This document shows, piece after piece, positions 4,894 to 40,415 of a DNA stretch of 64,000 nt. Within the stretch, counting starts at the first letter, position 1, and each line of letters begins with the position of its first letter. Below the pieces are notes generated by a model that did no database searches, had not been told where the DNA came from, and saw only the letters and a list, made by a program, of their open reading frames with translations. The position numbers were made by a program, and so were the translations under genes. Origin of the DNA: Candidatus Parcubacteria bacterium (GTDB lineage: Bacteria > Patescibacteriota > Patescibacteriia > UBA1558 > GWA2-36-10); contig JABHSK010000005.1 of NCBI GenBank assembly GCA_018669975.1, positions 121,132 through 185,131 of the forward strand, in the 5' to 3' direction.

Positions 4894-5673
4894 ATGGGTA
4901 AAAAAGTAAATCCAAGAGTATTTCGTATCGGATTAAGTGAGAATTGGAGTTCTCGCTGGTATTCTGGTCATGATTTTCCAAAGCTTTTGCGGGAAGATAT
5001 TTTAATCAGAGGTCATTTAAAAAAAGCCTTGAGAGATGCTGGAATAGATAGAGTTCGTATTGAAAGAAGTCGTGGTAAAGTGACTATCAACATTGATGCT
5101 GCCAAGCCAGGTTTAATTATTGGTCGCGGTGGTAGCGGAATCGAAGAATTGAAAAAGGTAATTCAAAAGAAATTTTTAGGTAAAGATGTTAAATTGCAAA
5201 TAAATATTACTGAGGTTTCAGTACCAAACTTAGCCGCCAATGTTATTGTTCAGAGTATTAGAGATGATGTAGAGAAGAGAATTCCTTTTCGTCGCGTTAT
5301 GAAACAAAACATTGATAAGGTAATGAAGGCTGGTGGTCAAGGTGTAAAAATTATTTTGGCTGGACGTCTAAACGGTGTGGAAATTGCTCGTTCTGAAAAA
5401 TTGACTCAGGGCAAAGTACCACTGCAGACATTGCGTGCCAATATTGATTATAGTCGCGGAGTAGCTAACACTATTTACGGAGTCATTGGTATCAAAGTTT
5501 GGATTTACAAAGGAGAATATTTTGATAAGAAAAAGAAAGAAGACAAAGGTAAGATGAAAGCTCCTACCAAGACAGTTAAATTGTTTTCTAAAGATAAAGT
5601 TAACATTCAACCAATAGAACCAGCTGTTAAAAAACCAGCTAATACAGCAGACAAAAAGACCAGTAAAAAATAA
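4894..5673 (+). CDS. rpsC: 30S ribosomal protein S3 with a Lys-rich C-terminal tail
   Basis: The KH and uS3 core (GKKVNPRVFRIGL…IIGRGGSGIEELKK) is present. Confidence 0.95.
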   Translation: MGKKVNPRVFRIGLSENWSSRWYSGHDFPKLLREDILIRGHLKKALRDAGIDRVRIERSRGKVTINIDAAKPGLIIGRGGSGIEELKKVIQKKFLGKDVKLQINITEVSVPNLAANVIVQSIRDDVEKRIPFRRVMKQNIDKVMKAGGQGVKIILAGRLNGVEIARSEKLTQGKVPLQTLRANIDYSRGVANTIYGVIGIKVWIYKGEYFDKKKKEDKGKMKAPTKTVKLFSKDKVNIQPIEPAVKKPANTADKKTSKK

Positions 5674-5700
5674 TTTTCAATAGATTCAAGATAAAAATAT

Positions 5701-6117
5701 ATGTTAGCACCAAAGAAAGTAAAACATAGAAAATGGCACAGAGGTGATAAGATCAAGGGTAAAGCTACTCGTATGACTAAAGTTAGCTTTGGTGATTATG
5801 GCCTTAAGGGCTTGCAGGCTGGTTGGATTACAGCTAGACAAATTGAGTCAGCTCGTCGTGCTATTGTTGGTCATATTCAGAGAGGTGGAAAAGTATTTAT
5901 TAGAATTTTTCCAGACAAGCCCATTACTGCCAAAGGTAATGAAATGCCCATGGGTAAAGGTAAGGGTGCTGTTGACCATTATGTAGCAGTAGTCAAACCT
6001 GGTACGGTTCTATTTGAGATGAGTGGTGTTGATGAAGAGACAGCTAGAAGGTCTATGCAATTAGCAGGCTACAAGCTACCAGTTAAAACAAAATTCGTAA
6101 GCAAAGATTTAATTTAA
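5701..6117 (+). CDS. rplP: 50S ribosomal protein L16
   Basis: [11 protein letters not shown]…[13 protein letters not shown] matches uL16. Confidence 0.95.
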
Positions 6118-6121
6118 GCAT

Positions 6122-6364
6122 ATGAAAATAGCAGAAATCAGAAAATTAGACATACAAAAGCTAAATGAGGCCTTGGCTGATTTAAGAAATAAAAGCAGGG
6201 AGCTTAGATTTAGTATTGCCAATAATCAATTGAGTGCTGTCAGAGATTTGAGAAAAACTAAGAAGGATATTGCTAAAATTATTACTATTTTAAATGAAAA
6301 AAGGGTAGTTACGGAAGACAGTAAAGCAGAAAAGGTAAGTGAAGATAAAAAGGAAAAGAAATAA
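6122..6364 (+). CDS. rpmC: 50S ribosomal protein L29
   Basis: The size, operon position and ELRNKSRELRF motif fit uL29. Confidence 0.85.
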   Translation: MKIAEIRKLDIQKLNEALADLRNKSRELRFSIANNQLSAVRDLRKTKKDIAKIITILNEKRVVTEDSKAEKVSEDKKEKK

Positions 6365-6396
6365 TTTTTCCGCTACAGGCGGAGTAAACAAAGTAT

Positions 6397-6645
6397 ATGG
6401 AAAAACAAGTAATTAAGAAAAAATTAGAAGGAGAAGTCGTTAGTGACAAGATGGATAAAACTGTTGTTATTAGTGTTGTTAGTATTAAAACACACTCTAA
6501 GTACAAGAAGCAGTATAAGTCTTCAAAAAAGTATAAGGCTCACGACGAAAAAAATCAGTATAAAGAAGGTGATGTTGTAATTATTGAAGCATGTCGTCCA
6601 CTTTCTGCTGACAAGAGATGGAGAGTTATAAAAAAAGTAAAATAA
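6397..6645 (+). CDS. rpsQ: 30S ribosomal protein S17
   Basis: [18 protein letters not shown]…KYKAHDE matches uS17. Confidence 0.9.
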
Positions 6646-6655
6646 CCACAGATAT

Positions 6656-7027
6656 ATGATTCAACACAGGTCAATGTTAAAAGTCGCTGATAATTCAGGT
6701 GCAAAGCTAGTGCAATGCATCAGGGTTTTAGGTGGTTATAAAAAAAGATACGCCCGTGTCGGTGATTTGATTACTATTACTGTAAAGTCTGCTCAACCAC
6801 ACGCTGCTGTAAAGAAAGGGCAAGTTTTACACGCGGTTGTTGTTAGGCAGAGAAAAGAAACTAGAAGACCAAGTGGTGTATACGTTAGATTTGATGATAA
6901 TGCAGTGGTTATTGTTGATAGAAAGACTAAGGAAATCAAAGGTACACGTATCTTTGGACCAATCGCTAGAGAATTAAGGGTAAAGGGATACAATAAAATT
7001 GTCTCTTTGGCACCGGAGGTATTATAA
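6656..7027 (+). CDS. rplN: 50S ribosomal protein L14
   Basis: [17 protein letters not shown] is the uL14 N-terminus. Confidence 0.95.
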
Positions 7028-7030
7028 AAT

Positions 7031-7357
7031 ATGAAAGTCAATAAAATGAACATAAAAGTGAATGACAAAGTAGCAGTTATTACCGGAAAAAATAAAGGTA
7101 AAGACGGCAAGGTTGTTCAAATTTTACCGTCAATGAACAAGGTGGTTGTTGAAGGTGTTAATATTATGTATAAACACTTACGACCACAAAAAAGCGGTGA
7201 AAAAGGACAAAGAGTTCAGTTTAACGGACCAATTACTGTTAGTAATGTCATGTTGGTTTGTCCAAAGTGTAGTAAACAATCACGTATTGGAATTAAGGTT
7301 GGTGATAATAAGCAAAAAGCAAGATTTTGCAAAAAGTGTAAAGAAGTAATTGATTAA
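7031..7357 (+). CDS. rplX: 50S ribosomal protein L24 (KOW domain) carrying a C-terminal CxxC…CxxC motif
   Basis: The KOW region (VNDKVAVITGKNKGKDGKV) is uL24. The C-terminus contains CPKC…(19)…CKKC. Confidence 0.9.
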   Translation: MKVNKMNIKVNDKVAVITGKNKGKDGKVVQILPSMNKVVVEGVNIMYKHLRPQKSGEKGQRVQFNGPITVSNVMLVCPKCSKQSRIGIKVGDNKQKARFCKKCKEVID

Positions 7358-7385
7358 TACTTCAATAAATTCAGTATAAAAAAAT

Positions 7386-7937
7386 ATGAATAAATTAGCA
7401 GAACAGTATAAGAAAGAAATCAGACCAAGCCTGCAAAAGGAGCTAGGTTTAGACAATGTCATGGCCGTGCCAAAATTGGACAAGATCGTGATTAATATTG
7501 GTATTGGTAAAGCTACTCAAGACAAGCAGTGGATTGAATTATCCAAATCAATCTTGGAGAGAATTACTGGTCAAAAACCAATGGCTACTAAAGCTAGAAA
7601 GTCTATCTCTAATTTTAAAGTTCGTGAAGGCATGGTAGTCGGTTCAAAAGTCACACTACGTGGTGAACGTATGTATGATTTCTTATACAGATTAGTTAAT
7701 TCTACTATTCCTAGATTTAGAGATTTCTATGGCCTAGAACCAAAAAGAGGTTTTGATGGTAACGGAAACTATACTTTGGGCTTGAAAGAACATATTGTTT
7801 TCCCAGAAATAGGTATGGATGATGTAGAAAAAGTTCACGGTTTAGAAGTAACTATAGTAACTTCTGCTAAAGATAACCAACAAGCATTGGCTTTGCTCCG
7901 CGCTCTAGGTTTTCCTTTTAAAAAGAATAAGAAATAA
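7386..7937 (+). CDS. rplE: 50S ribosomal protein L5
   Basis: The uL5 core (…AVPKLDKIVINIG…) is present. Confidence 0.95.
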   Translation: MNKLAEQYKKEIRPSLQKELGLDNVMAVPKLDKIVINIGIGKATQDKQWIELSKSILERITGQKPMATKARKSISNFKVREGMVVGSKVTLRGERMYDFLYRLVNSTIPRFRDFYGLEPKRGFDGNGNYTLGLKEHIVFPEIGMDDVEKVHGLEVTIVTSAKDNQQALALLRALGFPFKKNKK

Positions 7938-7943
7938 AATATT

Positions 7944-8129
7944 ATGGCAACAACCGCACAAATCGCAAAATCAAACAAAAAGCCCAAGTATTCTACTCGT
8001 AGAGTACGTAGATGTTGGCGCTGTGGCAAACAACGTTCTTTCATGAGAAAGTTTGAATTATGCCGCATTTGTTTCAGGGAATTAGCAGACAAAGGAGAAA
8101 TTCCTGGAATTAAGAAATCAAGTTGGTAA
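7944..8129 (+). CDS. rpsN: 30S ribosomal protein S14, zinc-binding type Z (61 aa)
   Basis: [11 protein letters not shown]…CRICFRE is the C4 zinc ribbon. The 61-aa length is typical of type-Z uS14. Confidence 0.9.
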
Positions 8130-8178
8130 ATATTTATTTAAATATAATATAAGATATAGAATATAAAATAACATAAAT

Positions 8179-8568
8179 ATGACAGATCCTATCGCAGACA
8201 TGTTAACAAGAATACGTAATGCTGTGGCCGTTAAAAAGCCAGAGATAATTTTGCCTTTTTCTAAGGTTAAATTTAACATTGCCAAATTATTGGAAGATGA
8301 AAAATATGTAGGCAACGTATCCAAGGTTAAGACTGGTAAATTTGATGAAATCAAAATTAATTTGATATACAAAGCTGATAACTCAGTGATTCGACATATC
8401 AAGAGTGTTTCTACACCAGGACAACGTGTTTATGTATCCGGTAAAGAAATTCCTCGTGTATTAAACGGTTATGGAATGGCAGTTGTTTCAACATCTAAAG
8501 GTGTTATGACTGGCAAAGAAGCCTCTAGGCAGAACATCGGAGGAGAGTTAATGTGTGAAATCTGGTAA
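8179..8568 (+). CDS. rpsH: 30S ribosomal protein S8
   Basis: MTDPIADMLTRIRNA is the uS8 N-terminus. Confidence 0.95.
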   Translation: MTDPIADMLTRIRNAVAVKKPEIILPFSKVKFNIAKLLEDEKYVGNVSKVKTGKFDEIKINLIYKADNSVIRHIKSVSTPGQRVYVSGKEIPRVLNGYGMAVVSTSKGVMTGKEASRQNIGGELMCEIW

Positions 8569-8595
8569 GCAGTTTTAATTTAAAATAATAAATTT

Positions 8596-9150
8596 ATGTC
8601 AAGAATAGGTAAAAAACCAATTGAGATACCAAGCGGTGTAGAAATCAAGGTCGCTAAGAATGATCTAGATATTTTTGAGGTATCTGTAAAAGGTCCTAAA
8701 GGAACTTTGCTGGTTAATGTCCCAAAAGGTGTTTCTGTAGAACAAGCTGAAAATCAATTATCTTTTAAAGTAAAGAACGAAGAAGCTAAAAGTGATAAAG
8801 CTTTGTGGGGATTAAGTAGGACTCTAGTTAATAATGCTGTTTTGGGAGTAATGGAAGGTTTTAGTAAGGTTTTAGAGATCAATGGTGTTGGATATAAAGT
8901 TGCTCTGCAAGGAAAAAAATTAGTGCTTAATGTTGGTTTTTCACATCAGGTAGAATTTGCTATTCCAGAAGGTATTACTGCAGAGGTTGAAAAAAATAAG
9001 ATTACAATATCTGGCATTGACAAACAACAAGTTGGTCAGATTGCTGCTGAAATAAGAGCTATCAAAAAACCGGAACCGTATAAAGGTAAAGGTATCAAAT
9101 ATATTGATGAGCAGATTCGCAGAAAAGCAGGTAAGGTAGTCAAATCATAA
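8596..9150 (+). CDS. rplF: 50S ribosomal protein L6
   Basis: MSRIGKKPIEIPSGVEI is the uL6 N-terminus. Confidence 0.95.
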   Translation: MSRIGKKPIEIPSGVEIKVAKNDLDIFEVSVKGPKGTLLVNVPKGVSVEQAENQLSFKVKNEEAKSDKALWGLSRTLVNNAVLGVMEGFSKVLEINGVGYKVALQGKKLVLNVGFSHQVEFAIPEGITAEVEKNKITISGIDKQQVGQIAAEIRAIKKPEPYKGKGIKYIDEQIRRKAGKVVKS

Positions 9151-18115: not shown

Positions 18116-18121
18116 AGATAT

Positions 18122-18150
18122 AAAAAATCAGCTCTAGGAGCTGATTTTTT
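18122..18150. terminator. Bidirectional intrinsic terminator between the convergent htrA-like and HTH genes
   Basis: Stem aatcagct/agctgatt flanked by aaaaaa and tttttt. The HTH stop codon lies in the loop. Confidence 0.5.
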
Positions 18151-18478
18151 GTTCGTTTTGATCCAGGTTGCTCTCCCTGTCTTCGTTATTCACCTTGTCT
18201 TTTTTATTTTGCAGTGCCAATTTTGGATTGGGGCTGTATTTTTTATTACTTATTTTCCATTTGTCTACGTATTGTCCCATACCTTGATCTTTTAATAAGT
18301 TGGATCTTCTAGTAGATTTCTGGGACCATTCCACTAAAGAAATAAAACTAATCTTATAGCGTCCATTAACCACTATATAGCGTAGTTCTTCACTTTTGAT
18401 GGCTTGGCGGATAGTTTTGGTAGAAACACCAAATAACCTGGCTGCCTCGGAAACTGATATGCGTATTATATTTTCCAT
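18134..18478 (-). CDS. Excisionase/MerR-family helix-turn-helix DNA-binding protein
   Basis: SVSEAARLFGVSTKTIRQAIKSEELRYIVVNGRYKI is a classic HTH_17 / excisionase-type DNA-binding domain. Confidence 0.7.
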   Translation of the reverse strand: MENIIRISVSEAARLFGVSTKTIRQAIKSEELRYIVVNGRYKISFISLVEWSQKSTRRSNLLKDQGMGQYVDKWKISNKKYSPNPKLALQNKKDKVNNEDRESNLDQNEQKISS

Positions 18479-18485
18479 ATAATTA

Positions 18486-18514
18486 TTGACATTTAATGGG
18501 GCTCATGTTAAATT
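18486..18514 (+). promoter_or_regulatory. Sigma70-like promoter (TTGACA-17nt-TAAATT) driving the GC-rich cassette
   Basis: Canonical -35 box, 17-nt spacer and -10-like hexamer. GAGAGGAG Shine-Dalgarno follows, then the ATG at 18571. Confidence 0.4.
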
Positions 18515-18570
18515 GACTCGTTATTTCGCACGTTTAAACCCTATAAACATTCTAAAGAGAGGAGACTTAA

Positions 18571-19230
18571 ATGTCAACCGAAAGTCCCAAAGTTCGTACA
18601 GCAGCAGACGTCGATTTACGGGTTGAGGAAATACTAGAAAAGGTAGAAACCGAACTTCAATATTGGGAGATTATCGAAAGTATTGGTGGTTTTGTCTGGC
18701 GCATGAATCATGACATGGGTCATGGTCGAATCGAGGATAAGGATGGCCAGGTTTCTGGTGACGTAGCTTTTATGCAACGAGTTATCGAAAAGCTGGTCAC
18801 TGGACTGTTTGAGAAGTATGGTGTTATCCATCCCAAGAATTGTCCAAAAGTTGAATTTGGTGAGACGCCGCCAGCAGCTCCCGAGGGCACGACCTACTAT
18901 TGGGATTGGTATGATCTTATGAAGCAGGAATCCTATAGTCAGGAATATAATGGCATGATTTGTGCCGCTTGTCCCTATAGTAAGGGTCTAGATTATTTCA
19001 AGGCTCTTGGTGGGAATATTCCCTGTGGCCTTTTTCCTGGCTCTTGCTTTCGTCTGCGCACTCCCTTTGCTTGTTGTATGATAGGTGAAGATCGCAGGTT
19101 CGAGTATACCATGGAGGAGTTTCTGGATAAGTTGCAAGCCGAACATGAACCGGCTGTATTAGCAGCTTTTACTGCTCATCACCTGAAATTGCAAGATCGC
19201 TTCGCTCAAAATCAACAGCAAAAGGGATAA
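18571..19230 (+). CDS. Hypothetical Cys-rich protein (7 Cys including CAAC, CC) in a compositionally foreign cassette
   Basis: A 219-codon ORF in markedly GC-richer DNA with a strong Shine-Dalgarno site (GAGAGGAG). No family recognised. Confidence 0.65.
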   Translation: MSTESPKVRTAADVDLRVEEILEKVETELQYWEIIESIGGFVWRMNHDMGHGRIEDKDGQVSGDVAFMQRVIEKLVTGLFEKYGVIHPKNCPKVEFGETPPAAPEGTTYYWDWYDLMKQESYSQEYNGMICAACPYSKGLDYFKALGGNIPCGLFPGSCFRLRTPFACCMIGEDRRFEYTMEEFLDKLQAEHEPAVLAAFTAHHLKLQDRFAQNQQQKG

Positions 19231-19269
19231 CCTCTTAAAACAATCCAATTCTCTAGAGAGGAGAAGATC

Positions 19270-19905
19270 ATGCATCTCGGTCTAAGTTTGAGTCCACAGC
19301 TAGCCTTGCGGCAGACTCAGCGTCTGAACCTGACACAGACTCAGCGTCTCGACCTACACCAACACTTGTTTGGCTTGCGTCTAGAGCTGGTCGGTCGTTT
19401 GCACGATGAACACTACACGCCCCAGGCCAAGTGTTCAGGCTGTAGCTACAATTTGAAACTTGTTGAAATTCTCCATGGATTTCGTGATGATCCGGATGAT
19501 ATTACTACTGAGTGTCCCAAGTGTCAGCGGCGTTTCACGCCTAGTCTGATTGCTCACGGACGTTTTGGTACCAAAGTTATCTTGAGCTTCTATTGTTCAG
19601 AGCAGACCCTGGCCCGGCTCGACGCCAACATCGACCCTGCTACCTACAAAAAGACACACCCGGCCATTTATCGGTCAGTACTGTTTCATTTTGGTAGCCT
19701 GCGTCAGGCTTTTGCTAGTCAGGGCAGGGAGTACTCTTTTAAGGAGTCCTTCGAATGGGCTGAAAAGGTTGAACCATTCCTGGGTCGTTTGCCTGATACC
19801 GAGATTGCTCGGTGTGCTAACGTTCCTGTGGGTAAGATTCGCCGTTTGCGGCGTAAGTTTGATATCCCTGTCTTTACCAAGCGCAGGACTTGGGATGAGT
19901 TATAA
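19270..19905 (+). CDS. Hypothetical protein with a CxxC…CxxC zinc ribbon and a C-terminal HTH-like segment
   Basis: CSGCSYN…(25)…CPKCQRRF forms the ribbon. The C-terminal IARCANVPVGKIRRLRRKF resembles a transposase/terminase-type HTH. A GAGAGGAG Shine-Dalgarno precedes it. Confidence 0.65.
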   Translation: MHLGLSLSPQLALRQTQRLNLTQTQRLDLHQHLFGLRLELVGRLHDEHYTPQAKCSGCSYNLKLVEILHGFRDDPDDITTECPKCQRRFTPSLIAHGRFGTKVILSFYCSEQTLARLDANIDPATYKKTHPAIYRSVLFHFGSLRQAFASQGREYSFKESFEWAEKVEPFLGRLPDTEIARCANVPVGKIRRLRRKFDIPVFTKRRTWDEL

Positions 19906-19920
19906 TATAATGTTTATTAG

Positions 19921-19945
19921 GAGGCTCTCCGGAGCCTCTTTTTTT
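19921..19945 (+). terminator. Intrinsic terminator (gaggctc-tccg-gagcctc then ttttttt)
   Basis: A perfect 7-bp stem plus a T7 run, 16 nt after the stop of the second cassette gene. Confidence 0.55.
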
Positions 19946-19946
19946 A

Positions 19947-19975
19947 TTGACTGCACAGGTAAAGTATTATATATT
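19947..19975 (+). promoter_or_regulatory. Sigma70-like promoter (TTGACT-17nt-TATATT) for the third cassette gene
   Basis: Read directly. An AAGGAGGA Shine-Dalgarno lies 7 nt upstream of the GTG start. Confidence 0.4.
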
Positions 19976-20016
19976 GGAAGTCGCACTTTTAAACCTAAAT
20001 CAAGGAGGATACTTCT

Positions 20017-20364
20017 GTGACACTAACACATCAACCTAACACCGAGTTGGAGTACTGGCAGGCCTTAGAGGGCTATGAAAAAACAGCCCTGAAGCTCAGA
20101 GATGGCCTAAGGAGAGGCCTAATACCCCGGGCTGAGATATCAGACACCAAACAGACCATTGAGCAGGCAGATACTGCCCTAACAGCTTTGTTCTTAGAGC
20201 TTGAGCGTAGATTTAATATTTTTTGTTATAAAAATCACCCGCAAGGCACTGCTCAACCCAAGGGTACGCAAAAACTCATCGATTGGTGGAATAAAATGGA
20301 CCATTTGGCCCAACAACAGATCATCGTGGGGGACGTAGCCACTAACCAGAAGAAGACTCCTTAA
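20017..20364 (+). CDS. Hypothetical 115-aa protein (GTG start)
   Basis: ORF with a strong Shine-Dalgarno site, its own promoter and its own terminator. No family recognised. Confidence 0.55.
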   Translation: MTLTHQPNTELEYWQALEGYEKTALKLRDGLRRGLIPRAEISDTKQTIEQADTALTALFLELERRFNIFCYKNHPQGTAQPKGTQKLIDWWNKMDHLAQQQIIVGDVATNQKKTP

Positions 20365-20373
20365 CTAGTACAC

Positions 20374-20398
20374 GAGGCTCCAATTGGGGCCTCTTTTT
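20374..20398 (+). terminator. Intrinsic terminator (gaggctcc-aatt-ggggcctc then ttttt)
   Basis: 8-bp stem with one G.U pair, followed by a T-run. Confidence 0.45.
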
Positions 20399-20406
20399 CT
20401 TAAATC

Positions 20407-20507
20407 TTATCCACAATTATAGATTTAATTACAGACCACTCTAAACATTTATATTATTCTGTGGATAAGTTATATTTTCTATTTTGGAAAATATTATCTG
20501 TGGATAA
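20407..20507. promoter_or_regulatory. Cluster of three perfect DnaA boxes (TTATCCACA at 20407-20415; reverse complement TGTGGATAA at 20460-20468 and 20499-20507) in an AT-rich spacer
   Basis: Exact 9-mer matches to the DnaA box consensus. The two reverse copies sit in a 13-nt repeat, tctgtggataagt. Confidence 0.5.
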
Positions 20508-20752
20508 GTATAAAAATCACCCTAAAATTGTAGTTCAAATTGGTCAAAAATCTAGGACAACTTTTTTAAAGTGTGATATAATTCGGTTCATCGATATATT
20601 GACCTAATCTTGGTGCTATAGTGTTTACAACATCGATTAAAAGTGTTATAATTCTGTCGACTTATTAATAAGTTACATAAACAAACCCCTAATTTGAAAG
20701 ATTTATTGGCTAATATTAGCCAAAAGAATAGACCTGAAAAAAGTGTAATATT

Positions 20753-23116: not shown

Positions 23117-26100
23117 ATGAGTTTAGTAAAAAGACTTTTAGTGTTTTCTTTGGTAATTACCACTGTCCTATCATTTAGTCCAATAAATGTAGAGGCAGCC
23201 GGTAGTTACGGTGCAGGCTCTTTGCTTGCTAAAGAAGGTGTTGAAGGCGCAGCCGTTTATTACATCGGTTCTGATGACATGAAATATGTTTTCCCAGATA
23301 GTAAGACTTATTTCACATGGTATGAAGACTTCAGTGATGTTGTTAGAGTACCTGTTACAGAATTAGACATGTATGGTAATGGTGGCGCTGTGACTTATCG
23401 TCCTGGTACCTACCTCGTTACTCACGAGGACACAGCAAATGTGTATGGTATAGGTGCAGGCGGTATGTATCACTTAATTCCTTCTGAAGCTGTTGCAACA
23501 GACTTGTACGGAGCAGACTGGGGATCCATGGTAATGGATGTAATTCCTGGTTATTTTTCAACAAGCTATACCGAAGGTTCTGATCTATCAGACATGTACC
23601 CAACAGGTACTTTATTGTCTGATGGTACAGATACTTATTACGTTGATGGCACATCAAAGAGAATCTTTGTTGATGCTGACGCTTTCGAAGCCAATGGCTT
23701 GATGGCTGACAATGTATTAGAAGTTAGCGATCTTTCTGATTATTCCGACGGTAGTTCTATCGACGGTGAAGAGTCAGACATTGCAGGATTCATGCCGGGT
23801 GAAGGTACTCCTGGTGACCCAGTTATTTCTGGTAGCCTTTCATTATCACTAGCTAGTGATACTCCAAACCCAGGTATTTATCCATCTACAGCTTCTGGTT
23901 TAGAAATGTTAAAATTCAAAGCCAAAGCTGGTTCTGATGGTGCTGTCTTAGACGGTATCACAATTGGTCATGGCGGTGTTGGCGCCACTACAGAATTCAT
24001 CAAGATTTATCTGTATGAAGGCGAATCAAGATTGACCAGTGGTAAGACAATCAATTCAAGTACAAATGCTACAGAATTCAACAACTTGAATATTGATTTT
24101 TCTGCCAATGAGACTAAGTATTTGACTGTTGTAGCTGACGCTGGAGTAAGCAAATCTGGTACTCATCTTTTCTCAATCACAGCAGCTGAGCTAGAAGCAG
24201 GCACTGCTACTTTAGGTTCTATAGTAGGTAATGCTATTTCTCTAGGTACAGCTAACGCTGGTGAAGTAGTTATCACTGAAGGTAGTGATCCTTCCAATGG
24301 TAAAGTTGGTGAACAGGACGCAGAATTAACTTCTTTCACTTTGACTGTTGATAGTATTGAAGACTCTTCATTTGAGAGAATTTCACTATATCATGCTGGT
24401 GCTGTTTCACGTGGCGACTTAACTGACCTTGAACTTTACAAGAACAGTAAGTCTGCTGAGAACTTGGTTGCTAGTACTAGTGGCTTAGACAGTGAAGATT
24501 TAGCTGTTTTTGTATTAGATACTCCAGTAGACCTAGAAAAAGGTCAAGCAGTTAAGTTTTATGTATATGGTGACATTTCAGGCGATGCCAAATCTGGCTC
24601 AGCTGAAACTGTTAACTTTTACCTTGATGAAACTTCAGATCTTAAAGTAATGGGTAATAATTATAACGCCCCTCTAGGTGTTGATAATTATGATCAGAGT
24701 TTTAACTCATCAACTGGTTCAGGTACTTATAATGGTGGAGCAGCTGCTCGCTATACAACTATGTACTTGGAAGGTAGTGATGTAACTTTAACTACTGATG
24801 GCCCATCTGCAACAAACATTGATGCTGGTGGTAATTCAGCTGATGATATCAACCTTTTGAATTTCGCTATTGCTTTGACTCAAGAAGCAGACTTAAAGAG
24901 TATTCAGGTTGAGTTACATGCTGTTACTACTGATATGGATGCTAGTGATACTACTGTAACAAGTAATTATATCACTGACGTTAAGATCGTTAATACTGAT
25001 ACAGGTACAACTGTATGGGGTCCAACTGATATCTCAAGTTTCTCTGATATTGGCAATAGTGCTGGTGTTAGTAAGACTTGGACAGATACAGAGACTTTAG
25101 CAGCGGGTACTCATAACTATAAAGTTACAGCTGACTTTAAGAATTCTAGCTTGGACGCTGGTAGTAAAATATACGCTGTGTTAGGTGATAAAGCAGACGG
25201 TAATACACTTATCTCAACTGCTGTTAAATCTACTGGCAACAATACTTATTTAACTAGCATTGTTCCATCAAGCTATACTCAAGGTGCAAATATGACCTTG
25301 AAGGGACCAGCTTTGAAAGCAACTAGAGCAACCACTCCAAACTCTGACGACATCGTTAAGGGTGCTGATGGTGTAACTGTTGCTAACTTGATCTTCTCTG
25401 CAGAAGATAGTGGTGCTGACCTCAAAATAACATCTGTAAAATTCTCAGGTTATGTTGATGGTTGGTCACGTTCTGTCATTTTGACAAAAGATCAAACTGG
25501 TTCTACTTTAGCTATTACTGATTTAGTATCATATGTTCGTGCCTATGCTGAAGAAGCAGATGGTTCTGAAACATTGTTAGGTACTAAAGCATTTAATAGT
25601 TCAGGTGAAGTCACTTTCAGTAGTATAGCTTGGAACATCCCAGCTGGTGAAACCAGAAACTTGCGTGTCGCAGTTGACACCAATGCTGGTCATACAGCTA
25701 CTGTAGGTTTGACTACAATGGACGCTTTCGCTGTTGATATTACTGATTTCTCAGCTGACGTATCAGCCGAGACTTCAAGTGGTACAGCTTTGACAGCTGC
25801 TCAGATGGGTACTGCTACTTCTGACCTTCCAAATACTGCTACTACAGCAGCTACTGGTCCTAAGTTTGCTATGTATTCAGCTGGTACTATCACTGTACAA
25901 GACGGTGCTGACAAACCAGCTGTAACCTTAGTAACAACTGGTTCTTCAGATGTTTATTATCACCAATTAGAGGTGTATACTGCTTATGAAGACTTAGCAA
26001 TCAGCAAGATGAAGTTCTTAGCTAGTGAGAAAGCTGGTAACTTTGCTTCAGTCAAGTTGACTGGTAAGAATACAGCCGGTGATACAGTATCATATACCAC

Positions 26101-27037
26101 TGATGTTGATGGCAGCGGTTACGCTACCTTTACTGGTATGGATTTGAAAGCTGATGATGACGGTGAAAATATCGACATGTATGTAACATTAAACACTGTT
26201 ACTAACGGCGCTTTAGTCGGTAGTTCAGCTACTTGGGACTTACAAACTACTGGTTTTGAAGCCAACGGTGTAGGCGGAAGCAACACTAACGTTGCTAGCT
26301 TTACTAATAGTGATGCTGCTTCAGCTGCTTTGTATGTTGTTAAGTCAAAACCTGTCTTTGCTAATGCTGGTTCAAACGGTTCATTGGCTGACGGTGTAAA
26401 CACCTTGTACAAATTTACTGTCACCCCAGCTGGTGAAGGTAAGATTGCTATCAAGAAGTTGAAATTCAACGTTGACGCTAGTGATGCCAGTGGTTCAACT
26501 CTGAATCTACATAGTTTCAGATTGTACAAAGGCACATCTTGTGATACAGCTATCGATACTGCTTTCTTTACTGACGGCGTATACGGTACTACAACTTTGA
26601 GTTTGTTGAATACTACTACCGCCGATTACGGTGATGCTGCAGCTAGTGTTGCAGTGTACATGTTCTTCGAAGGTACAAGTGATTCTTCATACACTGATGC
26701 TTCTGATTACTATGGTGAATTAGTAGTTCCAACTAGTGGTGAAACTTATTGTTTGAAGGCCACTGTTGCTAACTCAGCTACAAACGACTCTGTCGTTGCA
26801 AGTATTGCTGAGGAAGGACAAGACACTTCAGGTCCTACCTATGGTGCTTTGGCTTATGATCTTGCTGATTATGATTCATTGATTACTATTGGTACTGATT
26901 CTGACATTATCTGGTCTGACTACTCTTCAACTACAAGTCATCAAGACAGTCTAGGTTCTGGTACATCTTCTGACTTCTTCGGAGGTCGTTATCTACCAGG
27001 CTTACAGTCTGATGCAACATCTTTGAGTAAGAGCTAA
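23117..27037 (+). CDS. Giant (1306 aa) secreted Ser/Thr/Gly/Asp/Ala-rich surface protein with an N-terminal signal peptide
   Basis: The signal peptide is MSLVKRLLVFSLVITTVLSFSPINVEA. The mature part is acidic, low-complexity and repetitive. No domain recognised. Confidence 0.6.
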   Translation: MSLVKRLLVFSLVITTVLSFSPINVEAAGSYGAGSLLAKEGVEGAAVYYIGSDDMKYVFPDSKTYFTWYEDFSDVVRVPVTELDMYGNGGAVTYRPGTYLVTHEDTANVYGIGAGGMYHLIPSEAVATDLYGADWGSMVMDVIPGYFSTSYTEGSDLSDMYPTGTLLSDGTDTYYVDGTSKRIFVDADAFEANGLMADNVLEVSDLSDYSDGSSIDGEESDIAGFMPGEGTPGDPVISGSLSLSLASDTPNPGIYPSTASGLEMLKFKAKAGSDGAVLDGITIGHGGVGATTEFIKIYLYEGESRLTSGKTINSSTNATEFNNLNIDFSANETKYLTVVADAGVSKSGTHLFSITAAELEAGTATLGSIVGNAISLGTANAGEVVITEGSDPSNGKVGEQDAELTSFTLTVDSIEDSSFERISLYHAGAVSRGDLTDLELYKNSKSAENLVASTSGLDSEDLAVFVLDTPVDLEKGQAVKFYVYGDISGDAKSGSAETVNFYLDETSDLKVMGNNYNAPLGVDNYDQSFNSSTGSGTYNGGAAARYTTMYLEGSDVTLTTDGPSATNIDAGGNSADDINLLNFAIALTQEADLKSIQVELHAVTTDMDASDTTVTSNYITDVKIVNTDTGTTVWGPTDISSFSDIGNSAGVSKTWTDTETLAAGTHNYKVTADFKNSSLDAGSKIYAVLGDKADGNTLISTAVKSTGNNTYLTSIVPSSYTQGANMTLKGPALKATRATTPNSDDIVKGADGVTVANLIFSAEDSGADLKITSVKFSGYVDGWSRSVILTKDQTGSTLAITDLVSYVRAYAEEADGSETLLGTKAFNSSGEVTFSSIAWNIPAGETRNLRVAVDTNAGHTATVGLTTMDAFAVDITDFSADVSAETSSGTALTAAQMGTATSDLPNTATTAATGPKFAMYSAGTITVQDGADKPAVTLVTTGSSDVYYHQLEVYTAYEDLAISKMKFLASEKAGNFASVKLTGKNTAGDTVSYTTDVDGSGYATFTGMDLKADDDGENIDMYVTLNTVTNGALVGSSATWDLQTTGFEANGVGGSNTNVASFTNSDAASAALYVVKSKPVFANAGSNGSLADGVNTLYKFTVTPAGEGKIAIKKLKFNVDASDASGSTLNLHSFRLYKGTSCDTAIDTAFFTDGVYGTTTLSLLNTTTADYGDAAASVAVYMFFEGTSDSSYTDASDYYGELVVPTSGETYCLKATVANSATNDSVVASIAEEGQDTSGPTYGALAYDLADYDSLITIGTDSDIIWSDYSSTTSHQDSLGSGTSSDFFGGRYLPGLQSDATSLSKS

Positions 27038-38456: not shown

Positions 38457-40415
38457 TTAATGAAAATCTTCCTGCCAACTAACATGCTCAACTATACGGC
38501 TATCACGGCGGCCGAACCAGATAATCTGACGTGCAAACTCAGCTTTGTCACCACCGAAGTTAGTTAACTCGACGGTTAGTATTTGCGGAGATTCCGGTCG
38601 GTGTTGGATAGCAATACTTTCATCTTTGAGCAAGGCATCGAAATATTCAGGAACATTGTGATTGAATAACTTGGGGGTTCTACTAGCTTTCTCAAATGTA
38701 GCCATTCGAGAGCTCTGATAGATCAAGATCTCAATCAACAATGATTGATTAAATACGATGTCATTAGCGTGTAGGAAATTGACAACTAGGCAGAGGAATT
38801 CATGATAGAATTCTCTGAGATGCCCAGATAGTCTAAGTAAACTAGCTTCTTCAATTTGCCAGGAGATATCTCCGAACTCATCCAAAAAGACACATTGTGC
38901 TTGTCCAGTCAGCACGTTTTTTAGGAATTGTTCGTAGTAGGCGATCTCTCCAGAGATGATTGGGAAGCGGTCTTCACGTCCATGTTCCAGAATGTACTGG
39001 TACAAGTCAGTGTATTTAACACCAAGTTGGTCAGATAGGTACAGGGACATAAAGAAGCTCAATTTATAGCCATGCAATACTTGGGTAATCCAAGCTAACT
39101 TGGCGGCTCGTTGCCAGTCTTCAGGGGGCATGGTATCGGTACCGATGCAGATATCCTCATATTCTTGCACTTCGCCAAGGCGAGGTGAGGCATGAGGTTC
39201 AATCAGAGCGATACGTTTGGCACGAATGCCGTGCATGGCCACATAGACTGGGTCAGACATGTCTGTGTTTGGCAGGATGGTACAGAGGAAAACTCCAATC
39301 TGATCATGTAGTCCAGCCTGTAGTATTTCTTCAATACCATTGGAGAAACTTGTGTAAGTTTCACCAGGTAAGCCCAGGATGAGCTCAGTGTAGACGGGGA
39401 CATTGGCTTGATGGTATCTGGTCTGTAGACTACGATAGGTGTCGAGTTTAATATTACGTCGACCGATGTTTTGCAAGGTTTGTGAGTTTGTACTTTGAAA
39501 GGACAGTGTCACACCTTTAGATAAACCAGCTTTTTCCAGTAGCGTGGCAATTTCGAAGATTCTGTCTTCAGCATTTTTGCCGTAGCAACAGCGGAAGGCT
39601 TGTGGGTAACCAAAGGCTGATTTGGCAGCTACCATCATCTGAGCCGTAGCTAGATCCCATTGGTACATACCAAAGTTAGCGTCAGCACTAAAGACAAAAG
39701 CAATTCGGTTGTCACCAAACCACATAACTTCGTCTTGCAGTCTTTGACTGGGAAAACGTCGTACTTTGCGTACAGCATTGCCCCAATAGCAAAAGGAACA
39801 TCCAAAAGGACAGCCGCGGTTACTTTCAAAGATAGCTTGGTATTCAATGTCGTCTGACACATCTCGAATTAGATAGTCATAGAGCCCAGTTAGATAGGGG
39901 GAAGGCAAGAGGTCAAGGTCTTCGATCATAGGACGATCAGGAGTCTGGACTACCTTGTCTTCACCTAAATCACGGTAGGAAACACCTTTGACCGAGGAGA
40001 AGTCGCGACCCATGAGATGAGCATTTAGCACTTTAGCAAAAGTGACTTCACCCTCACCACGGACGACTACATCGATAAAAGGATTGGCTGTGAGGAATCG
40101 CTCAGCATCATGTGGTACATGAGCACCACCAAAGATAATCAGTGCATCGGGATGCATGATTCTGGCAGCCTTAGCTACAGCTAGGTTGAGTTCGTGATTC
40201 CACAGCGACGAAGAGAAAGCTAACACTTCTGGCTCTTCATAACTACCGACAATATTATCTACAGTGTCTCGGCGGAAGATAAAAGGCATGAATTCAAAGT
40301 TATGCCTGATTTCTGACCAAGTCTCTGCACTAGCCCTGAGCATGCCCGAGGCTATTGGCAGGTAGATTTTGTTGCCCATTAGGATGTTGAATTCGTGTAA
40401 ATAGATCTTTTTCAC
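38457..40415 (-). CDS. B12-binding-domain radical SAM protein (class B radical SAM), GC-rich
   Basis: CPFGCSFCYW is the CxxxCxxC motif. An N-terminal cobalamin-binding-like domain is present. G+C is visibly higher than in neighbouring genes. Confidence 0.8.
   Translation of the reverse strand: MKKIYLHEFNILMGNKIYLPIASGMLRASAETWSEIRHNFEFMPFIFRRDTVDNIVGSYEEPEVLAFSSSLWNHELNLAVAKAARIMHPDALIIFGGAHVPHDAERFLTANPFIDVVVRGEGEVTFAKVLNAHLMGRDFSSVKGVSYRDLGEDKVVQTPDRPMIEDLDLLPSPYLTGLYDYLIRDVSDDIEYQAIFESNRGCPFGCSFCYWGNAVRKVRRFPSQRLQDEVMWFGDNRIAFVFSADANFGMYQWDLATAQMMVAAKSAFGYPQAFRCCYGKNAEDRIFEIATLLEKAGLSKGVTLSFQSTNSQTLQNIGRRNIKLDTYRSLQTRYHQANVPVYTELILGLPGETYTSFSNGIEEILQAGLHDQIGVFLCTILPNTDMSDPVYVAMHGIRAKRIALIEPHASPRLGEVQEYEDICIGTDTMPPEDWQRAAKLAWITQVLHGYKLSFFMSLYLSDQLGVKYTDLYQYILEHGREDRFPIISGEIAYYEQFLKNVLTGQAQCVFLDEFGDISWQIEEASLLRLSGHLREFYHEFLCLVVNFLHANDIVFNQSLLIEILIYQSSRMATFEKASRTPKLFNHNVPEYFDALLKDESIAIQHRPESPQILTVELTNFGGDKAEFARQIIWFGRRDSRIVEHVSWQEDFH

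Follow-up and report, generated by a model that had tools for sequence, protein, structure and literature searches.

The stretch of DNA analyzed here, referred to as the window, comprises 64,000 nucleotides of contig JABHSK010000005.1 from a Candidatus Parcubacteria bacterium, a member of the Candidate Phyla Radiation (CPR). Within it lies a G+C-rich block of three co-directional open reading frames (ORFs), P1, P2, and P3, next to a divergent gene of the HTH_17 (excisionase) family. An initial annotation, made from the sequence alone, had described the three ORFs of 219, 211, and 115 aa as an acquired cassette, possibly a small defense, toxin, or metal-handling system. The ORFs are present as described, and so are the Shine-Dalgarno sites, two sigma-70-like promoters with 17-nt spacers, two intrinsic terminators, and a bidirectional terminator. 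The features of the locus are:

18120-18152, bidirectional terminator-like hairpin, 13-15 bp stem with T runs on both strands
18134-18478, minus strand, divergent HTH_17 (excisionase-family) gene, 114 aa
18486-18514, plus strand, sigma-70-like promoter of the P1-P2 unit, TTGACA-17-TAAATT with TG, 10/12 matches
18571-19230, plus strand, P1 ORF, 219 aa
19270-19905, plus strand, P2 ORF, 211 aa
19919-19940, plus strand, intrinsic terminator of the P1-P2 unit, 9-bp stem with 5 GC pairs and a T run
19947-19975, plus strand, sigma-70-like promoter of P3, TTGACT-17-TATATT
20017-20364, plus strand, P3 ORF, 115 aa, GTG start
20374-20393, plus strand, intrinsic terminator of P3, 8-bp stem with 6 GC pairs and a T run

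This arrangement supports two transcription units, P1-P2 and P3. P1 and P2 are separated by 39 nt and have a near-identical 17-nt ribosome-binding context in common. The Shine-Dalgarno strings of P1, P2, and P3 are GAGAGGAG, GAGAGGAG, and AAGGAGGA, respectively. The setting is one of housekeeping genes, with a DUF192 gene and a PDZ protease-like gene upstream and an extracytoplasmic function (ECF) sigma gene, then a DUF5667 gene, downstream. No tRNA genes are found in the 64-kb window. Exact-sequence matches in databases are annotated only as "hypothetical protein" (HOB10_03135/03140).

Base composition and codon usage

Windowed G+C content, G+C content at third codon positions (GC3), and codon usage all set the block apart. 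In 400-nt windows, G+C is 0.44-0.49 across 18600-20400, compared with 0.30-0.37 upstream and 0.26-0.33 downstream. The overall contrast of ~47% vs. 34% is near the 50% vs. 36% that had been judged by eye. The rise is confined to the right side of the hairpin at 18120-18152, which is probably where the G+C-rich island begins on the left. The right edge is the P3 terminator, and G+C drops to 0.26 directly after 20393.

The background GC3 is 0.278 +/- 0.040, calculated from the 63 other ORFs among the 66 non-overlapping ORFs of the window. P1, P2, and P3 have GC3 values of 0.395, 0.509, and 0.500 (z = 3.0, 5.8, and 5.6), and their codon-usage distances, based on synonymous codons and the pooled window genes, have z-scores of 1.8, 5.2, and 3.7. 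Deviations from the host of this type, in both base composition and codon usage, are characteristic of islands. The top five GC3 outliers of the window are P2, P3, a radical-SAM gene (38457-40415), P1, and the HTH_17 gene, which has a GC3 of 0.391 (z = 2.9) and a codon-distance z-score of 3.4. Because the HTH_17 gene is also an outlier, the island probably begins at the bidirectional terminator, and this gene probably belongs to the same island. GC3 is not raised in the ribosomal-protein genes of the window.

The encoded proteins

P2 begins with a Q/L/R-rich stretch and a long helix, continues with a CxxC-x23-CxxC ribbon and a helical core, and has a helix-turn-helix (HTH; approximately residues 164-196) at its C-terminal end. 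The initial annotation had identified the CxxC pairs correctly and miscounted their spacing as x25. In an alignment of 16 sequences, C55, C58, C82, and C85 are invariant and the C-terminal segment "PFLGRLPDTxIA...VS...IR..R.KLGI" is conserved. The AlphaFold2 model is a confident single body, with a predicted local distance difference test score (pLDDT) of 88.7 and a predicted template modeling score (pTM) of 0.81. In the model, residues 1-16 are disordered and are followed by a helix at 23-44, the ribbon, the helical core, and three short C-terminal helices, in agreement with the HTH-like segment proposed earlier. Structure comparison of this predicted model finds a three-helix HTH fold, and strands surround the four cysteines (Cys4) at pLDDT > 90, as in a zinc ribbon. 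Pfam zinc-ribbon matches to the P2 family are sub-threshold only (E 0.007-0.9), and a PDB sequence-profile search with the P2 alignment returns no match. Going by the model, P2 is best described as a zinc-ribbon and HTH protein of an unnamed family that would bind DNA, and it would most likely act as a transcription regulator.

The N-terminal QTQRL repeat of P2, also noted in the initial annotation, is encoded by a tandem repeat at 19312-19331 and 19336-19355 (20 nt, 90% identical, period of 24 nt). The product is a duplicated octapeptide, (R/T)QTQRL(N/D)L. At the amino-acid level, the repeat is found throughout the family, and the identity at the nucleotide level suggests recent duplication or conversion.

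By eye, the P2 motif "LxLTQxQRL...LRLELI..L.DE" resembles the "LxLTPQLQQ...LS..EL...I..EL" of sigma-54, and hhalign places P2 residues 173-208 on the RpoN box region. P2 might then be a miniature sigma-54-like factor or sigma-54 mimic, with its N-terminus corresponding to region I and its HTH to the RpoN box. With hhalign, P2 reaches a probability of 2.6% to Escherichia coli RpoN and of 3.6% to a profile of five RpoN sequences, and the N-terminus is left unaligned. Sigma54_AID, CBD, and DBD have no match at E<=1 in the window P2 and four homologues, P2 does not possess a core-binding domain, and RpoN is not retrieved by the PDB searches. Given these failed profile tests, the sigma-54 identity is essentially refuted at the sequence level and is extremely improbable.

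The nearest known counterparts of the P2 HTH are small DNA-binding domains of the GcrA, FapR N-terminal, resolvase, and sigma region 4 type, although P2 has no Pfam or NCBIfam match to any of these families. The N-terminal helix, Cys4 ribbon, and helical core of P2 are without a PDB match. Zinc-ribbon transcription factors, e.g., the TFIIB/TFE type and the phage Ogr/Delta-type Cys4 activators, are small proteins that combine a Cys4 ribbon with nucleic-acid or polymerase contact. P2 is like them in its ribbon and differs in architecture and size, and there is no evidence for polymerase contact in P2.

P1 is made up of a helical N-domain (approximately residues 20-125) and a C-domain with C131, C134, C152, and C168, followed by a C-terminal helix. 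Together with G106 and W113, these four cysteines are invariant in an alignment of 40 sequences. The initial annotation had listed seven cysteines, including CAAC and CC pairs. All seven are present and only four are conserved in the family; the other three, including the CC pair, are lineage-specific. The conserved cysteines of P1 and P2 look like structural Cys4 sites, and both the P2 ribbon and the P1 module are predicted to bind zinc. In an exhaustive profile search, the P1 family comprises 280 clusters (50% identity) at E<=1e-3 and 58 at E<=1e-30. Most members are 185-225 aa, and the longer ones (278-653 aa) contain no Pfam fusion domain. A PDB sequence-profile search with the P1 alignment finds no match.

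P3 is homologous to the N-domain of P1 (hhalign probability of 96.3%, E of 2e-9, 95 columns). The two have the motifs TELEYWxxIE, F..KN.P, and WW..M in common, and tblastn with P3 finds P1 homologues. By this homology, P3 is a stand-alone paralogue of the P1 N-domain. The common domain is Trp-rich and helical, and P1 adds to it a Cys4 module that presumably binds zinc. The initial annotation could name no family for P1, P2, or P3, and this holds: none has a match beyond noise at E<=1 in Pfam, PHROGs, PADLOC, or NCBIfam, and such searches with several of their homologues likewise return only noise.

Zinc-binding anti-sigma factors (ZAS) have an H-x3-C-x2-C motif and are usually encoded beside an ECF sigma gene. 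P1 reads N-G-M-I-C-A-A-C and has no His at -4. Moreover, P2, P3, two terminators, and 390 bp lie between P1 and the ECF sigma gene, and the DUF5667 partner is downstream of the sigma gene.

The product of the divergent gene matches Pfam HTH_17 at 4.6e-8 and TIGR01764 with 29 bits (cut-off of 28.8). In PADLOC-DB 2.0, it matches mad1 solely via its HTH.

Sister lineages and distant homologues

The window was compared with two sister lineages that have the full block (L013/L011/L023 and L014-L016) and with a third lineage, L017. On a 188-kb contig of a relative and several short contigs, the order is conserved as PDZ, HTH_17 (divergent), P1, P2, P3, ECF sigma, and DUF5667. On the 188-kb contig, the upstream genes are in the same order as well (ribosomal proteins, SecY, Adk, Map, and Glycos_transf_4). 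Amino acid identity in the sister lineages is 67-69% for P1, 77-82% for P2, 51-69% for P3, 84-98% for the HTH_17 protein, and 75-98% for flanking proteins. The cassette is equally G+C-rich at the same site in both, with GC3 of 0.45-0.63 vs. 0.24-0.34 in the host and 0.28-0.32 in the flanks.

Pairwise dS is at least 1 (saturated) in cassette and flanks alike. The dN/dS ratio is 0.09-0.14 for P1, 0.07-0.10 for P2, 0.09-0.24 for P3, and 0.05-0.13 for the flanks. Presence at the same site combined with saturated dS means that acquisition is old and predates the split of these lineages. The low dN/dS ratios indicate that the genes are real and still under purifying selection. Originally proposed as acquired DNA, the block is indeed compositionally foreign, but it is old rather than recent. 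The initial annotation had also held that the same three genes, with the same composition and at the same site in all relatives, would refute its reading. This is largely what is observed, in two of the three related lineages, with P3 alone in the third.

At this site, L017 carries only P3. The junction retains the P1 leader and ATGTCAACC, directly followed by the P3 promoter. On the evidence of this junction, L017 has undergone a clean deletion of P1-P2 with P3 kept, and the loss shows that the island is partly dispensable. An extra 93-aa G+C-rich ORF is located beside the HTH_17 gene in L017. A separate 1166-bp contig (L024, protein P0010) matches P1 from residue 81 to 219 and P2 over its first 119 residues, both at 99-100% identity, and diverges after that. 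Its called protein bears a GATase_5 Pfam tag, and the contig is probably a chimeric assembly.

Distant P2 homologues were collected from 42 metagenome loci and L001-L005. They are solo genes in variable, CPR-like housekeeping contexts, e.g., between tRNA genes next to rplS, between fusA and tuf, and near rpsB/tsf. Neighbor clustering finds no conserved neighbor of these genes, and as far as seen, the P2 family is confined to CPR-like contigs. P2 homologues are G+C-richer than their flanks in 41/42 loci, and their GC3 exceeds that of the median neighbor in 18 of 20 long loci (mean of +0.114, Wilcoxon p = 5e-4). Loci with a GC3 excess include L001, L026, L032, L033, L048, and L049 (e.g., 0.51 vs. 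0.33, 0.85 vs. 0.53, and 0.64 vs. 0.34). In high-G+C hosts, the homologues have host-like G+C or slightly below, and the GC3 of the L003 homologue is below that of its host. A tRNA gene is found within ~1 kb in 5 of ~22 P2 loci, which is suggestive and inconsistent.

In L028, a P2 homologue ends a 3.7-kb G+C-rich islet (5230-8900; G+C of 0.51-0.60 vs. 0.43). The islet is flanked by a 349-aa ORF and a small Cys-rich ORF, and on the other side by two ORFs that by eye look like prfA, rpmE and rpsB/tsf. Inside it are also an ORF of ParB/sulfiredoxin-like appearance and one with a possible HTH, all these ORFs having been judged by eye with no family search run.

Distant P1 homologues, including those from a genome-contig scan with a 6-sequence alignment, are solo genes in metagenome-assembled genomes labeled Moranbacteria, Yanofskybacteria, Saccharibacteria, and others. 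On the phage-like contig L009 (1-4733), an 11-tRNA array is followed by a full-length P1 homologue, HNH, a metallophosphatase, and the RNA ligase RtcB, which looks like a tRNA supply-and-repair block. In L006 (6036-6716), two tRNA-Gln(CTG) genes 600 bp apart are immediately upstream of a P1 homologue and could be a duplicated integration target.

Stand-alone P1 N-domain proteins of 127-155 aa are present in nine IMG/VR viral loci. Their genes neighbor RecE/RecT-like and ATP-dependent DNA ligase genes (PHROG matches) and ORFs read by eye as DHFR. These phage early proteins (contigs L018-L021 and L075-L082) possess the P1/P3 N-domain motifs GG(F/Y)(I/V)WRxNHD...GR and YW(K/D)W(F/Y). They differ from P1 in having no Cys4 C-domain and belong to no PHROG family (PHROGs v4).

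Outside this clade, the two families do not travel together. By tblastn and hidden Markov model searches of six-frame translations, the other family is present in 0/44 distant P2 loci and 0/23 distant P1-type loci; many of these loci are short, with several kb on both sides in ~15 P2 loci and ~10 P1 loci. This bears on the proposal that P1, P2, and P3 act together as a self-contained system for anti-phage defense, toxin-antitoxin-like activity, or metal handling. In its favor are the compact layout with its own promoters and terminators, the closely spaced P1 and P2 genes with their matching ribosome-binding contexts, the Cys-rich proteins, and purifying selection on all three genes in the two sister lineages. 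A multi-gene system is marked by a conserved neighborhood across unrelated genomes, but P2 has no shared neighbor and the P1 and P2 families co-occur in none of the 67 distant loci. P3 merely duplicates the P1 N-domain, and L017 lost P1-P2 cleanly while keeping P3. Neither a PADLOC-DB 2.0 model match nor co-occurrence marks P1-P3 as anti-phage defense genes, and Pfam, NCBIfam, and PHROG matches are likewise missing. Beyond the Cys4, which look structural, the invariant residues are only G, W, P, F, and a few polar ones (R, D, T, and Q), with no recognizable catalytic motif. Defense or metal genes are not seen among the annotated neighbors. For these reasons, the defense, toxin, or metal system of the initial annotation is very unlikely.

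Putative control elements

A 15-nt element, TCGCACnTTTAAACC, is shared by the two transcription units and occurs in the 64 kb only at the following positions:

18526-18540, plus strand, copy 1, TCGCACGTTTAAACC, just 3' of the P1-P2 promoter
19981-19995, plus strand, copy 2, TCGCACTTTTAAACC, just 3' of the P3 promoter

The copy at the P3 promoter is invariant in L011-L017 and L023. Among all fetched loci, the 15-mer is present in this clade only and so provides no tie to the solo P2 genes. TCGCACnTTTAAACC is a candidate shared operator or leader element. The P1-P2 promoter is kept in L015 and L013. Across four lineages, the P3 promoter and leader hardly vary from TTATTGAC via TATATT up to the Shine-Dalgarno site, even though synonymous sites are saturated. 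The conserved promoters and the shared element indicate that the two units are probably co-regulated. At the level of sequence, this suggests common control by an island-encoded DNA-binding protein, which may be P2 or the HTH_17 protein.

The spacer between P3 and the ECF sigma gene (20365-20752, 390 bp) is A+T-rich and is 81% conserved across the four lineages despite synonymous saturation. The cluster of DnaA boxes that the initial annotation placed beside the block is located here. Its three perfect boxes, at 20407, 20460, and 20499 (span of 20407-20507), are all those of the window, where 0.63 would be expected by chance. Further elements of the spacer are three extended -10 repeats of the "AAAGTGTnATAAT" type and a pair of conserved palindromes, ACTTATTAATAAGT and GGCTAATATTAGCC; the spacer has no match in Rfam. 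An origin of replication (oriC) is unsupported, with positive GC skew across the whole window and no flip in gene orientation. The spacer may be a promoter region under DnaA control, or else a leader or small RNA that is missing from the annotation.

Origin of the block

The evidence leans toward the block being an old accessory island that came from a mobile element, probably a phage, and is centered on a zinc-ribbon/HTH regulator. The island would probably span 18120-20393, the divergent HTH_17 gene included. Its donor, as we infer, was most likely a higher-G+C phage of the CPR or another mobile element. Two unrelated orphan families, P2 and P1/P3, would have been joined here, as opposed to a coevolved three-part machine, and any interplay between P1/P3 and P2 is conjectural. 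P2 would be a DNA-binding regulator with an N-terminal amphipathic helix, Cys4 ribbon, helical core, and C-terminal three-helix HTH. The P1/P3 domain is found in uncultivated phages, where a small protein encoded among the early or DNA-metabolism genes consists of it. Either P2 itself or the divergent HTH_17 protein would co-regulate both units. Presence or absence among relatives and patchy cargo, both expected of an island, are observed in the L017 deletion and in the scatter of the families over unrelated contexts.

Acquired islets and cryptic phage remnants ("morons") are the closest known counterparts. Like the block, they have sharp compositional edges at terminators, their own promoters, an excisionase-family HTH gene at the edge, patchy cargo, partial loss in a sister lineage, and a cargo domain in common with phage early regions. 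The block differs in having no integrase, att sites, or tRNA target, in being G+C-richer than its host, and in its age, as seen in the saturated synonymous sites.

Several points weigh against the island reading as a whole. The island lacks an integrase, att repeats, and a flanking tRNA gene, with the window beyond the locus unscreened for integrases; the sole gene at the island resembling a mobility hallmark is the excisionase-family HTH_17 gene. Att-like or inverted repeats around the cassette and the solo P2 genes are short only and possibly due to chance. Mobile DNA is usually A+T-richer than its host, and the block is, to the contrary, G+C-richer. No P2 relatives are found in IMG/VR or GenBank phages, and neither P1 nor the phage-type N-domain has a match in GenBank phages. 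Owing to these absences, the phage link rests on a few uncultivated contigs and the P1 N-domain only. The 15-mer has weak support, with 14 of 100 shuffles giving at least two matches when two mismatches are allowed. DNA binding, zinc binding, and regulation by P2 are predictions. Finally, GC3 is still high in four lineages after synonymous saturation, and selection could maintain it.

The last point is also the main argument for native CPR genes, in which selection or gene-specific bias would keep G+C high, including GC3, with no need for horizontal transfer. The high G+C could then be due to mRNA structure, to translation, or to the avoidance of an AT-directed process. Consistent with native genes, P2 homologues from many different genomes have GC3 above that of their neighbors (18/20 loci), purifying selection acts on all three genes, and synteny is stable in the clade. 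What argues against them is the patchy distribution, in which nearly every genome offers another context and no neighbor is conserved, and the presence or absence of P1-P2 within the clade. Homologues in high-G+C genomes and on phage-like contigs are host-like in composition, or even lower in GC3 than the host as in L003, and the ribosomal-protein genes of the window show no GC3 enrichment. By our own rough estimate, two-state decay from a donor GC3 of ~0.8 could leave 0.4-0.5, so that the composition data are compatible with transfer and native genes alike. Native genes are the main rival reading, which we consider unlikely.

A further reading is that P2-type genes form a novel group of zinc-ribbon/HTH regulators of the CPR that are self-contained and mobile, and that P2 was captured here with phage-type P1/P3 to give a novel, phage-derived module for regulation or superinfection control. 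The G+C-rich coding of P2-type genes would be actively maintained, because they are G+C-richer than the host in most genomes and stay so after synonymous saturation. This is less probable than native genes and, on the whole, quite unlikely.

If the block is an old island of mobile-element origin, it is a well-documented example of DNA gained horizontally long ago by a streamlined CPR genome, a type of genome in which gene flux is thought to be limited. The analysis also defines two families without a name in curated databases: a helical-domain and Cys4 family (~280 clusters, in CPR and uncultivated phages) and the zinc-ribbon/HTH family. As a phenomenon, a CPR genome with an islet of compositionally deviant orphan genes is ordinary and opens no long-standing question. 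Throughout their family, P2 genes are G+C-richer than their hosts almost everywhere, an unusual trait in mobile DNA.

Two other genes of the window have raised G+C. The B12-binding radical-SAM gene (38457-40415, minus strand, 652 aa) has a G+C content of 0.45 and a GC3 of 0.433 (z = 3.9). It is flanked by an NAD-dependent epimerase/dehydratase gene upstream and a UDP-GlcNAc 2-epimerase gene downstream and is probably a second horizontal acquisition. The other is a 1306-aa Ser/Thr/Gly/Ala-rich ORF (23117-27037) with an N-terminal hydrophobic segment, where G+C is 0.405, GC2 (the second-position value) is 0.476, and GC3 is 0.264. Since the increase is in GC2 and not in GC3, it reflects amino-acid composition, not foreign origin.

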